A stretch of 64,000 nt of DNA from an uncultured delta proteobacterium (GCA_963814715.1 CAWFDW010000005.1:608864-672863); one strand, 5' to 3'; shown: positions 24,918-28,432, numbered from the stretch's first letter. Numbers and translations: made by a program. Notes: generated by a model from the sequence alone, not told the origin.

Positions 24918-27275
24918 TCAGCGCCGGATTTCATCAAGCGCTTTCTTCATCGCGCTCAATCCAAAATCTATCTCGTCCGCCGTGATCGTCAGCACCGGCG
25001 CCAGCCGCACGACGTTGTCCGCGTTGAGCGTCCAGTTCACGATCACCCCGCGCGCCAGAGTCGCCGCGACAAACCGATGCGCCAGTGCCGCGTCGCGAAA
25101 CTCGATCCCCACGATCATACCAAGCCCGCGCACCGACGCTATTTCCGGCGCGCGCATCGCCGACAAACGCCGCACGATTTCCTTGCCAATCGTCGCGGCG
25201 CGCTCGCACAGACCGCTCGCGCACGATCACGTTCAGACTAGCCAGATCCAGCCGCACACGAAAGCGGATGCCCGCCGAACGTAGTGATGTGTCCGAGCGG
25301 CGGATCGTGCGAGAGCGTGCCAAGAACCTCGTTGCGGCTGCATAACGCGCCCAGCGGCAATCCGCCGCCCAGCGCTTTGGCCATCACGATAATGTCGGGC
25401 ACGACGCCGAAGTGCTCCAGCGCAAACATTTTGCCGGTGCGTCCGAAGCCGGTCAGCACTTCATCGAAGATGAGCATCGCGCCCGCGCGATCGCATTGCT
25501 TCACGAATCGCGCGAATGAATCCTGCCTCCGGAATCCGCACGCCGCCCTCAGCTTGCACCGGCTCGACGATCACCGCCGCAATCGTCGAGTCGATTTTGT
25601 CGATCGCGCCAACATCGTCGAACGGCAGATGCGTCACCGGCCCGGGCAGCGCGCCGAACGGCTCGCGCATCGCGCGATTTCCAGCCAGCGCGAGCGCGCC
25701 CATCGTGTCTCCATGATACGCGCCGTCGAACGCCACGAATCCCGCGCGTCCGGTAAACTTGCGCGCCACCTTCATCGCGCATTCGATCGCTTCCGCCCCG
25801 CTGTTCGTGAAATACACGCGCTCGAGCGGCCGCGGCAGCAGCTCGACCAGCCGCCGCGCCAGCATGACCTGGCTCTCGATCACGTACTCGCCGTACACCA
25901 TGACATGCAGATGGCGTCGCGCCTGCGCCGCGATCGCGTCGAGCACTTCGCGATTTCCATGGCCGAGCGCCGACACTCCGATCCCCGCGATGAAATCGAG
26001 ATAGCGCCGCCCGTCCGACGCGACCAGCCACGAACCCTCGGCGCGCGAAATCTCCAGCCCGATCGGCGCGTCGGAAGTCTGCGCCAGGTTCTGGCGGAAG
26101 TAGTCGCCAAGTTGAGTCATCGCGGACGCCACCATCATGTCGAGGAACTCGCCGCCACCGTGACGCCAATCGAGCGGCGGCGATTGCATCTCACCGGGCG
26201 CGCAAACGTACGGTATCCCCATCGCGCGCGCTTCGATTTCACAATCGTCGCCGACCACCGCCATCGCTTCGATTCGTCCCGACACACCCGCGATGCAATC
26301 GCGGAACTCCGCGAGATCGCGCACTGCGGAAACGTGCACCGTCCTGAATCCCGGCGAAATTTTGAATGAATCCGCCTTCGCCTCGAATATCACCGTCCAC
26401 TCAAGTCCGCGTCCCTCGAACAGCTCGACCGGCTCGCCCGCAATCGCACGCCATCGCGCGCGCTCCCGCACTCCGCGTATCGCGGCAGCGTCACGCAACG
26501 GGATGCGCGCCGGCGGCATCGACTCGCCAATACGTTCGAGCGCCGCTGACATCCGAATCGCCAGCTCGCGCGCCGCACGACCGTCGGCACTCACAACGAA
26601 CACCTGATGCAGCGACAAGCATCCGAGTTGCTCGAACAACACGACATCGCGCGCGAGCAAATTCCGGCGATCTCGTCGATTCGCGACGGAATCGATCGCG
26701 ATCCAGCTCGCGATCAGCGCGCCACTCACTCTGCTGCCGAATCCAATCACGTTGCGCCGGTGAAGCGACTCGATCGTCGCGTCGTCGCCGTACGCGACCA
26801 CCAGCTCGCAATTTCGCGAGCAACTCCGCGGTCAGGTCGAACGCGATCGCGGCTCCAGTGACGCACCTCGATACGCGCGCCGACGTCGCGATCGATCTCG
26901 CGCGAGCGTCCGCGCAAACTCCGCAAAAAATATCGGCTCAGCCGACGCAGTTTTGATGATCACCCGCGCACCCGCGATCAGCGCGATCACAACCTCATGG
27001 ATTCCCGCACCCGCGACGTTGCCCGCCGCGATGAATCCAACTGTCTTCGGCCCGACTACAGTGGGGCGGGCCGCCGTGCCCGCCCTCTTCAATGCCTCAC
27101 TCGTGAACGGTTTCAGCAGCGCGTCGATCGAATTTTCGAGCATCGCAACCGAATATCCCGCCGAATGCGCGATTGCCGCGATCGCGTCGCGTCGTCGCGC
27201 GTAGTTCCGGTCGCGCCAAAGTGCGAACGCCCGCGCCAGTGCGTCAGCCATCCGCTCCGCACGCCGGACTGACAT
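24918..27275 (-). CDS. LuxC-like acyl-CoA reductase continuous in frame with a class-III (omega/ArgD/GabT-like) aminotransferase; about 6 frameshifts
   Basis: LuxC part: ...[35 protein letters not shown]..., ...[13 protein letters not shown]..., ...[15 protein letters not shown]..., ...[20 protein letters not shown]. There is no stop before [14 protein letters not shown]...[14 protein letters not shown]...[12 protein letters not shown]...[18 protein letters not shown]...[16 protein letters not shown]...[17 protein letters not shown]. Confidence 0.75.
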
Positions 27276-27317
27276 CTTCCGCTCTCTGCCCGCGCGCCGC
27301 GCTGGCTGTACTCGCGC

Positions 27318-28432
27318 TCATCGCGACGCCTCCGCCGCTTCAGTCGCCGAGAATTGCCCGATCCCCAGCGCGCAGCCGCGAGCTTCTCCGCCTGCCGCTC
27401 GACCGATCACGCGAACTCGCTCCACGCTCGACGAATCCCAAGGTCTTCCGTCATGACCGCGGACACCGACCCGACGTTGGCGAGATCGAAAAACGTCAGC
27501 ATTCCGATTTCCCCATCCGGCACCGGCCGCAACGTGACCGGATCCCGCGCCGTCACCCGCAGCCACGGCGGCGGAATTTTGAATCTCTCTTGCGCATCCG
27601 ACAGCGCCGCGGCAGTTGAACGACGTCGCGTCGTAAAGCTGCGAGCACAATTCCGTCATCCCGTATTCGTTGATGACCATCGCGGGCGCGATCGCGAGCA
27701 TTTCGCCGGCCCGCGCGATCACCTCCGACGCTTGCATCGGCACGACCTGCCCCTTCGCCCCGCCGGTGTCCATCATTCGCGAACCCGCTGCGAGCCGAAG
27801 TTTCATCCCGCTACTGCTCAGCCTCGGAAAACAGCGCCGCGAACGCAGCCGTCGTCCCCATGATACAAACCGGCTCGCGCCGCGCCTCGCACTCGCGCAA
27901 GAAACCCAATCGCCGCCGCAACATCGACCCTCTCGCGCGACGCCGCCGCCAGATGCGTGCCCGTCGCGAACTCTTCGATACTCCAACTGATCATCGCCGA
28001 CAGCGACGACTCCGGCATCACGTCGGCCGTCGGATGCATCGCGAGAATCGCCATTCGGCGTGCGTCGGGGAACAGCATCGTTCGCAGATGAGCGATCGCC
28101 GACGCTCGATAAATCTCGGGCCGCGCAACGATATGACGTCCGCGCCGCGTTCGCCCCTGCGTGGTCCCGCTGGTGAGAAAAACCGCCGCATCCGGCGAGA
28201 GCGCCGCGCCATCAATCGCAAGGTCGGCATACTTGAACGCGACATTGCTGACCGCCGGAATATCGTCAACGCTGCGCACCGTGCCAGGCTCGACGCCGCG
28301 CGCCTCGCAGTAGCGCCGATACGCGCCGCAACTGTTTCGAATTGATGACGAAAGACCGTCCAGCGCGAGCCGCTGGAACGATTCAGGCTCAGGCTTGTGG
28401 ATAAACGTGAGGACCTGCTCGTAGATGGACAT
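27318..28432 (-). CDS. LuxE-like acyl-protein synthetase (adenylate-forming); about 4 frameshifts (27905, 27815, 27610, 27430)
   Basis: MSIYEQVLTFIHKPEPESF...YRRYCEARGV...IPAVSNVAFKYADL...AVFLTSGTTQGRTRRGRHI... / ...MDTGGAKGQV...NEYGMTELCSQLYD... / ...PPPWLRVTARDPVTLRPVPDGEIGMLTFFDLANVGSVSAVMTEDLG... / ...VIGRAAGGEARGCALG... Confidence 0.75.

Follow-up and report, generated by a model that had tools for sequence, protein, structure and literature searches.

A region of about 3.5 kb on the minus strand (positions 24918-28432) of a 64,000-nucleotide (nt) stretch of DNA from an uncultured delta proteobacterium (GCA_963814715.1, CAWFDW010000005.1:608864-672863; this whole stretch is hereafter called the window) was compared with related loci. 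Once frameshifts are repaired, the region reads as three separate, translationally coupled minus-strand genes for a LuxE-like synthetase, a LuxC-like reductase and a class-III aminotransferase. The trio forms a tightly linked operon that is shared by many uncultured bacteria of soils. The best overall explanation, which we consider probable, is that these three enzymes would take a carboxylic acid through a thioester and an aldehyde to an amine. A preliminary description of this DNA had proposed the same acid-to-aldehyde-to-amine module, with the transaminase covalently fused to the reductase. The module idea is backed by comparative evidence, with the chemistry itself being predicted, while the apparent fusion almost certainly arose from an error of sequencing or assembly that added a single C at position 26125. 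The features that define the region are as follows.

27318..28432, minus strand: luxE-like gene for an adenylating acyl-protein synthetase, 368 amino acids (aa) after repair (PF04443; LuxE of 7xc6)
27318..27321, minus strand: ATGA in which the luxE stop (TGA) overlaps the luxC start (ATG), from a junction alignment with four relatives
26117..27321, minus strand: luxC-like gene for an acyl-thioester reductase, 398 aa after repair (PF05893; LuxC of 7xc6)
26124..26125, minus strand: CC run with one extra C, almost certainly spurious, a window-only base that puts luxC in the frame of the aminotransferase
26117..26120, minus strand: ATGA overlap of the luxC stop and the aminotransferase start, with a Shine-Dalgarno-like GGTGG 7 nt upstream; the same overlap is found in 68 of 84 loci
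24918..26120, minus strand: gene for a class-III (omega-type) aminotransferase, 399 aa after repair (PF00202)

Taken letter by letter, the minus strand between 24918 and 28495 holds six open reading frame (ORF) fragments with matches to three Pfam families only, which follow one another as LuxE, LuxC, LuxC plus Aminotran_3, Aminotran_3 and Aminotran_3. Every motif quoted in the preliminary description was recovered in these minus-strand ORFs at the coordinates it gave, and ORF 25461..26801, as lettered, does pass without a stop from the C-terminal half of LuxC (PF05893, 8.6e-23) into the N-terminal half of Aminotran_3 (PF00202, 1.1e-46). This single open frame, together with the natural reductase-transaminase fusions known in PigE and TamH, speaks for a bifunctional LuxC-aminotransferase polypeptide that would channel the aldehyde. 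The read-through, however, requires a base that is absent from every aligned relative. When the window was aligned at the nucleotide level with L001, L002, L003 and L005, four relatives of 86-91% identity, the extra C, which lies between GTGGCGTC and GCGATGACT at 26125/26124, was present in the window and in none of the four. Without it, LuxC terminates in DMMVASR followed by TGA (the true stop, at 26119-26117), and this TGA overlaps the start codon of the aminotransferase (ATGA, 26120-26117). A stop closed the LuxC frame in 84 of 84 related loci, with the exact four-nucleotide ATGA overlap in 68 and a fusion in none, so that the covalent fusion is accounted for as a one-nucleotide insertion artefact. 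The syntenic loci of the related genomes hold three genes, with the four-base overlap between LuxC and the aminotransferase in all of them and a corresponding overlap between LuxE and LuxC in L002 and L005.

Homologues of the two halves are likewise found as stand-alone proteins. A search with the fused ORF returned more than 100 stand-alone aminotransferases of 399 aa, at 87-96% identity over the covered part of the query, as well as LuxC proteins that likewise stand alone, measure 383-398 aa and end in ...GGGEFIDMMVGSR, mostly from Candidatus Binatus. No C-terminal aminotransferase was found on LuxC among the best 150 of 1903 LuxC-family representatives. The database check for fused LuxC plus Aminotran_3 architectures gave two other proteins only (285 and 446 aa), both short chimeras from fragmented, error-rich assemblies, in whose ENA loci every gene was shattered. 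The window-specific nature of the extra C, the ATGA junction in the relatives, the 84 stops, the stand-alone homologues and the excess of insertions in the window (described below) are the reasons for regarding the fusion as an artefact, and a real bifunctional polypeptide is extremely improbable. Where genes overlap by ATGA, one indel in an error-prone assembly can produce a convincing bifunctional protein, and the protein database searched already contains two chimeras of this kind, which stem from other assemblies.

The genes were repaired by removing window-specific bases mapped against the four relatives. Extra bases were located at about 28357 and at 28326/28325, 27897, 27823, 27604, 27441 and 27420 in luxE; at 27263, 26901, 26842, 26814, 26693, 26664/26663 and 26125 in luxC; and at 25501, 25247 and 25214 in the aminotransferase gene. 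The true start of luxC is the ATG at 27321; the start at 27275, which the preliminary description had placed 42 nt downstream of LuxE, is a frameshift product of the extra C at 27263. About 17 window-specific frameshifting insertions fall within the 3.5-kb region, where the density of about 4 frameshifting insertions per kb extends over at least 20 kb of the window. Against relatives with contig names k141/k127, which suggest short-read assemblies, 40-45 extra-base events of a length not divisible by three were counted per ~10-12 kb. Over the aligned span 14897-35339, comparisons of 10-20 kb each gave 40-74 such extra-base events and 10-27 missing-base events, and insertions also split essential genes for PPDK (30940-33688), a histidine kinase (23554-24724) and a CNNM/CBS protein (21327-22545). 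Since single-base insertions occur throughout the aligned span, any ORF-level reading of the window needs frameshift repair. Inspection of ORFs can also miss such errors: between 28325 and 28357 (minus strand), at the LuxE N-terminus, a +1 insertion is followed 31 nt on by a +2 insertion, by which the frame is restored and the ORF stays open while twelve residues are garbled (LDGLSSSIRNSCGAYRRY in place of LDVFRHQFETVAAYRRY).

Numerous frameshifts in all three genes would also be expected if these were genuine pseudogenes in real decay. The insertion density, however, is equal in the PPDK, histidine kinase and CNNM genes over 10-20 kb, the three proteins are otherwise 85-95% identical to intact relatives, and extra bases far outnumber missing ones. 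Together, these observations make sequencing error a simpler explanation than gene decay, and we regard pseudogenes as very improbable.

All three repaired proteins scored above the Pfam gathering (GA) scores, in agreement with the family assignments of the preliminary description: the LuxE-like protein with 71.7 bits on PF04443 (GA 24.9), covering profile positions 38-387 of 391, the LuxC-like protein with 143.5 bits on PF05893 (GA 21) and the aminotransferase with 360.5 bits on PF00202 (GA 30.5). The raw LuxE fragments stayed below the threshold (17.1 bits). The sole Protein Data Bank (PDB) matches of the LuxE-like and LuxC-like proteins were the two subunits of 7XC6, the LuxC-LuxE fatty acid reductase of the luminous bacterium Photobacterium phosphoreum. 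Both missed the NCBIfam equivalog cutoffs (69.4 versus 550 bits for LuxE NF052244; 54.9 versus 750 bits for LuxC NF052251); by these scores they are distant members of their families and not lux orthologues. Two cysteine codons mark their predicted active sites.

27372..27374, minus strand: LuxE Cys351 codon in the tail motif R-G-C-A-L, predicted acyl-accepting thiol, invariant in 70 sequences
26619..26621, minus strand: LuxC Cys232 codon (FEQLGCLS), predicted catalytic thiol, aligned with 7xc6_A and invariant in 74 sequences

The 368-aa LuxE-like protein is without the C-terminal subdomain of ANL enzymes and has instead a short tail ending in ...GRAAGGEARGCALGIGQF..., in which R349, G350, C351, A352 and L353 are invariant across the 70 sequences. 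In LuxE, the tail motif is TRxxKGCxLS, in which Cys364 serves to deliver the acyl group to LuxC (PMC9157457); the tail Cys of the window protein was matched through this published motif, as the alignment to 7xc6_E ended before the Cys. Residue K225 (MDTGGAKG) is also invariant and was compared with the adenylation Lys238 of P. phosphoreum LuxE; in an inexact phmmer alignment it lies one to two columns from the GGWK lysine of 7xc6 LuxE. The LuxC-like segment FEQLGCLS aligns with YDQQACFS of 7xc6_A, the region of the catalytic Cys296. Genetic evidence from the sequences also connects the two proteins, which are adjacent in all 75 loci where LuxE is visible, in addition to their ATGA overlap.

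Some relatives carry LuxE and LuxC as one polypeptide. Pfam-confirmed LuxE-LuxC fusions were found in P0133, P0140, P0147 and P0234 (representatives of 764-821 aa), a continuous 783-aa LuxE-LuxC frame lies at 4789-7137 of L068 (a Binatia-type metagenome-assembled genome (MAG) labelled 'Proteobacteria bacterium'), and further candidates for such a frame are L058 and L079. The LuxE-LuxC fusion still precedes the aminotransferase with an ATGA overlap, and the fusion type of this family is LuxE-LuxC and not LuxC-aminotransferase. The LuxE-LuxC junctions of relatives are also ATGA overlaps, and the fusions may include indel artefacts.

For the aminotransferase, the residues of interest are the lysine that holds pyridoxal 5'-phosphate (PLP) and a substituted position of the substrate pocket.

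25376..25378, minus strand: Lys248 codon (VMAKALGGG), PLP Schiff-base lysine, invariant in 82 sequences and aligned with AKALGGG of 1vef and YgjG
25707..25709, minus strand: Asp138 codon (AYHGDT), in the alignment column of the substrate-carboxylate Arg of acetylornithine aminotransferase (AcOAT), ornithine aminotransferase (OAT) and GABA aminotransferase

In the 82 Binatia sequences, K248, D219, E186 and R371 are all invariant; D219 corresponds to the Asp that binds the pyridine nitrogen, and a Glu/Arg pair handles the alpha-carboxylate of co-substrates of the glutamate/2-oxoglutarate type (PMC4244111). The column of Asp138 is occupied by Arg in 1vef (FSGRT) and by Lys183 in the putrescine aminotransferase YgjG of E. 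coli (FHGKS). Asp138 is invariant in the 82 Binatia aminotransferases and in every fully read Asp-type aminotransferase beside LuxC in the metagenome loci described below. The Arg at this position (Arg180 of OAT, 'GRT' motif) salt-bridges the substrate carboxylate, and its replacement explains the preference of YgjG for substrates without a carboxylate (PMC4244111). Additionally, the Gln of DEVQTG, which has been called strictly conserved (PMC4244111), is replaced by Leu in the window protein and by Ile in the consensus sequence of the aminotransferases linked to the module.

An alternative is that the aminotransferase is a housekeeping enzyme of the ArgD/LysJ type, either as a syntenic bystander or with luxEC replacing ArgB/ArgC (LysZ/LysY) in the reduction of N-acetylglutamate or alpha-aminoadipate. 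Its best NCBIfam match is indeed acetylornithine transaminase (NF002874) and its nearest solved relative is the Thermus AcOAT/LysJ, 1VEF, so that the top NCBIfam and PDB matches are both acetylornithine/acetyl-lysine aminotransferases. In addition, the protein is strongly conserved (60-95%) and its gene lies among housekeeping genes in Binatia, and ArgB, ArgC and ArgD follow the same logic of acid activation, reduction and transamination. Each cutoff was missed, however (NF002874, 372.6 versus 457 bits; TIGR00707, 359.8 versus 410; LysJ, 310.6 versus 700; GabT, 269.9 versus 507), the carboxylate-binding Arg has given way to an invariant Asp and the conserved Gln to Leu or Ile, and the aminotransferase accompanies LuxE and LuxC into unrelated neighbourhoods, where the distant module-linked aminotransferases also fall below the NCBIfam cutoffs. 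An ArgD/LysJ-type role is, on balance, unlikely. By overall similarity the protein belongs to an ArgD-like branch, and use of N-acetylornithine, ornithine or GABA is improbable from its pocket. By its missed cutoffs and the Asp in place of Arg it is not a canonical ArgD or GabT; the preliminary description had named a grouping with ArgD/GabT orthologues, along with a stop after LuxC, as evidence against its proposal. Roles like those of glutamate-1-semialdehyde aminotransferase (HemL) or BioA were considered and set aside, as the scores on those models were much lower. BioA has a similar YHGDT motif, with an Asp that contacts an amino group, which would be a possible likeness to the window protein.

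The three-gene reading was followed across genomes in two sets. The first consisted of 80 species-level Binatia-type MAGs (GTDB), found through an alignment of LuxC. LuxE, LuxC and the aminotransferase followed each other on one strand in 75 of these 80 loci (75 of the 76 that could be assessed); the preliminary description had asked whether LuxE is a conserved neighbour, and in these genomes it is. The five exceptions were four contig ends and one locus (L060) with a DDE transposase near the expected position of LuxE; this transposase (DUF772 plus DDE_Tnp_1, L060:3258-4334) lies ~1.4 kb upstream of LuxC, and no LuxE was detectable there. The second set consisted of 80 metagenome loci, 6 of them Binatia-like and 74 not; it was gathered by means of another alignment, built from remote LuxC relatives, and the LuxC proteins have 25-40% identity to that of the window. 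Among the 55 assessable loci of these 74, an Asp-type aminotransferase was found beside LuxC in 36, at an aminotransferase identity of 46-57% and mostly 9-500 nt downstream of LuxC on the same strand. LuxE, LuxC and the aminotransferase were the only neighbour families common to more than six metagenome loci, which indicates that the trio moves as a unit. In four loci the order was aminotransferase-LuxE-LuxC, and the aminotransferase cluster of these is named NC10/Methylomirabilales by NCBI. One trio-related MAG is labelled Thermodesulfobacteriota.

Several observations weigh against this reading. The neighbourhood in Binatia (histidine kinase, ThiL, CNNM, PPDK) is syntenic as a whole, so adjacency within Binatia is weak evidence, and the case for linkage is one of ATGA coupling and non-Binatia loci. 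Nineteen of the 55 assessable distant LuxE/LuxC loci are without an Asp-type aminotransferase. The aminotransferase is far more conserved than LuxE and LuxC (60-95% versus 40-85%), and could therefore have an additional or a different core role. Finally, cultured Pantoea and Azospirillum carry a LuxE-like and a LuxC-like gene with a short-chain dehydrogenase/reductase (SDR) gene instead of an aminotransferase. They were found when PLSDB plasmids were searched by tblastn for a cultured organism with the aminotransferase-bearing trio, a search that gave only distant LuxE/LuxC plus SDR trios. As in the window, the LuxE-like gene of these plasmids (350-370 aa, 'long-chain fatty acid--CoA ligase') overlaps or abuts a LuxC-family 'acyl-CoA reductase'; unlike the window, the third gene is an SDR, presumably leading to an alcohol, and the LuxC-like proteins have 22-27% identity to that of the window. 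On the Pantoea dispersa plasmid (L172, 5610-8957) the SDR-type gene directly follows LuxC, and on plasmid AZO_p2 of Azospirillum lipoferum 4B (L171, 5634-11475) a gene of the SDR/3-oxoacyl-ACP-reductase type comes after three ABC-transporter genes. These SDR trios look like an acid-to-aldehyde-to-alcohol counterpart. Because of them and of the 19 loci without the Asp-type aminotransferase, LuxEC pairs are not bound to an aminotransferase, which suggests that they serve generally to supply aldehydes, with various enzymes to consume them.

Weighing these points, we hold with reasonable confidence that the three genes form a true conserved unit and that their acid-to-amine pathway is plausible. 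As regards the proposal in the preliminary description, the conserved gene order and coupling, the occurrence of the trio in unrelated contexts and an aminotransferase that is not a canonical ArgD or GabT sustain the module, and the part that fell away is its fusion into one polypeptide.

Each catalytic step given here, as well as the direction of flux, is a prediction made from sequence. In the pathway proposed, the LuxE-like enzyme would use ATP to convert a free carboxylic acid to an acyl-AMP and then to an acyl thioester on Cys351 of its own flexible C-terminal tail, as suggested by the family to which it belongs and by its invariant RGCAL motif. From the tail the acyl group would pass to Cys232 in the LuxC-like enzyme, where the thioester would be reduced with NAD(P)H to the aldehyde; the aligned, invariant Cys and the natural LuxE-LuxC fusions argue for this step. 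The aminotransferase, with PLP on Lys248, would then convert the aldehyde to a primary amine at the expense of an amino-acid donor, probably an alpha-amino acid since the Glu186/Arg371 pair is kept. The reverse, catabolic direction, from amine to aldehyde by the aminotransferase and on to an acyl-thioester and acid by LuxC and LuxE, has parallels in the catabolic class-III aminotransferases YgjG and GabT and in the membership of LuxC in the aldehyde dehydrogenase (ALDH) superfamily. Enzymes of the LuxC type, however, act as reductases and lack the catalytic Glu and Asn found in hydrolytic ALDHs, an oxidation has no use for a thiol-tailed ligase that converts ATP to AMP, and the activating enzyme comes first in the gene order of most lineages. 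The catabolic direction is for these reasons highly unlikely.

Some features of the substrate may be suggested. The Arg for the distal carboxylate is replaced by an invariant Asp (or by Leu), so that N-acetylglutamate and other derivatives of dicarboxylic amino acids are improbable substrates. An acyl chain that is hydrophobic (fatty) or bears a cationic group is more likely, and the precedent of LuxCE, along with the SCP2 gene next to the trio in one lineage, tips the balance slightly towards the hydrophobic kind. Phosphonate chemistry, which a nearby gene of the phosphoenolpyruvate mutase/isocitrate lyase family (Binatia, L169) might have indicated, was rejected, as this gene is on the other strand, is separated by intervening genes and is absent in most loci; the Asp of the aminotransferase pocket, unfavourable to an anionic substrate, also opposes it.

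Comparison with known systems places the trio near several pathways. With the P. phosphoreum LuxC-LuxE pair (7XC6), the proteins share the missing ANL C-terminal subdomain, the short (K/R)GCxL tail and the LuxC Cys, and the window genes for them are adjacent and overlapping, with fusion in some relatives. The window LuxC-like protein is ~80 aa shorter, however, and both proteins are very distant from the lux enzymes by NCBIfam scores; the trio is also without luxAB or luxD, and the consumer of the aldehyde would be an aminotransferase and not a luciferase. In the biosynthesis of the tambjamine BE-18591 in Streptomyces albus (TabQ/TabE/TabA), a reductase of the ALDH superfamily that clusters with LuxC converts a thioester to dodecanal, from which dodecylamine is formed by a class-III omega-transaminase that is a protein of its own (bioRxiv 10.1101/2025.08.11.669332). 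The logic of thioester, aldehyde and amine on separate proteins is the same. The Tab system, however, belongs to a natural-product cluster, has no LuxE-type synthetase and receives its acyl group bound to an acyl carrier protein (ACP) from a dedicated system like fatty acid synthase, whereas the window trio would activate its substrate by the LuxE-like enzyme and lies among housekeeping genes, with no ACP, polyketide synthase or nonribosomal peptide synthetase nearby.

TamH (of TamA/TamH) and PigE also combine reductive release to an aldehyde with class-III transamination, and the window aminotransferase scores 293 bits on the PigE model, below its cutoff of 850. In both, an SDR-type or other reductase domain is genuinely fused to the transaminase and the substrates are bound to carrier proteins, whereas the window proteins are separate and the reductase is of the LuxC type. 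ArgB/C/D and LysZ/Y/J share with the trio the activation of a carboxylate, its reduction to a semialdehyde and class-III transamination; they differ in activating by phosphorylation, where the trio would use adenylation and a thioester, and in having a reductase of another family, and the window aminotransferase is without the carboxylate-binding Arg and below the ArgD and LysJ cutoffs. The acid-to-aldehyde-to-amine logic is known as well from engineered cascades of carboxylic acid reductase (CAR) and transaminase.

The content of the trio and its neighbours varies among lineages. A different class-III aminotransferase, with YHGLT and without the Arg, lies upstream of LuxE in four further assessable loci and in L158, which was too short to assess (L119:2646-3833, L134:2422-3612, L137:1128-2339, L154:2640-3788 and L158:2576-3757). 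These proteins have 36-40% identity to the window aminotransferase, with DEIYTGFGRTG seen in L119 and L158, and are immediately upstream of LuxE-LuxC in four of the five loci and ~1.5 kb upstream in L137. In L109 (3064-4854), a conventional 597-aa enzyme of the acyl-CoA synthetase type (AMP-binding/AMP-binding_C) occupies the position of LuxE and is followed by LuxC and an Asp-type aminotransferase. A search for a conserved fourth gene gave lineage-specific ones only, neither of them in Binatia, and these are hints that lie outside the core.

L166:9263-9901, L169/L170:9222-9860, L090:6301-6903, L101:4543-5154 and L103:3916-4218: gene for an SCP2-domain protein
L108/L167:10593-11888, L115:7527-8756, L140:7406-8650 and L145:7458-8708: gene for a Zn-dependent alcohol dehydrogenase

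The first, which directly follows the aminotransferase gene in one non-Binatia lineage, has a product of 212 aa whose C-terminal domain is of the SCP2 (sterol/lipid carrier) type; it hints at a hydrophobic substrate or product of the module. The second, downstream of the aminotransferase in another lineage, encodes a Zn-dependent medium-chain alcohol dehydrogenase of ~415 aa that weakly resembles threonine dehydrogenase and is below all cutoffs; it directly follows the aminotransferase in L115, L140 and L145 and lies past an opposite-strand GDSL lipase gene in L108/L167.

As regards regulatory elements, a promoter/terminator scan of 24300-28900 gave no signal above shuffled expectation, and no riboswitch was found in Rfam scans of the whole window or in a permissive scan upstream of luxE. 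The Rfam matches in the 64-kb window were two tRNA genes only (540-611 and 43764-43838, minus strand). A protein of ~135 aa is encoded at 28774-29181 on the plus strand, divergent from luxE; it is conserved in this divergent arrangement throughout Binatia, with the same position in 47 related loci, and has no Pfam or NCBIfam match.

The author of the preliminary description knew of no described LuxE/LuxC-aminotransferase system, and our literature searches, including those on Binatota, likewise returned no description of this combination. The parts are individually well understood and the chemistry is already known elsewhere; what differs here is a predicted LuxE-type, self-acylating activation without a carrier protein, a stand-alone three-gene operon and a clade of aminotransferases with Asp for Arg. 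It is possible, though we place it somewhat short of an even chance, that the trio represents a widespread, undescribed and carrier-protein-independent pathway from free acids to primary amines that belongs to core physiology and not to a natural-product cluster, in uncultured bacteria from soils and sediments, among them Binatia and NC10/Methylomirabilales. The product of such a pathway could be a long-chain fatty amine, a precursor of amino-lipids or a diamine made from an amino acid. If amines are indeed made from free acids in this way, the trio would be a natural, ACP-independent counterpart to the engineered CAR and transaminase cascades, and the Asp-for-Arg aminotransferase clade would no longer be annotated as ArgD. 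It would also point to a new amine metabolite, possibly a lipid, in the abundant uncultured Binatia and NC10 bacteria.

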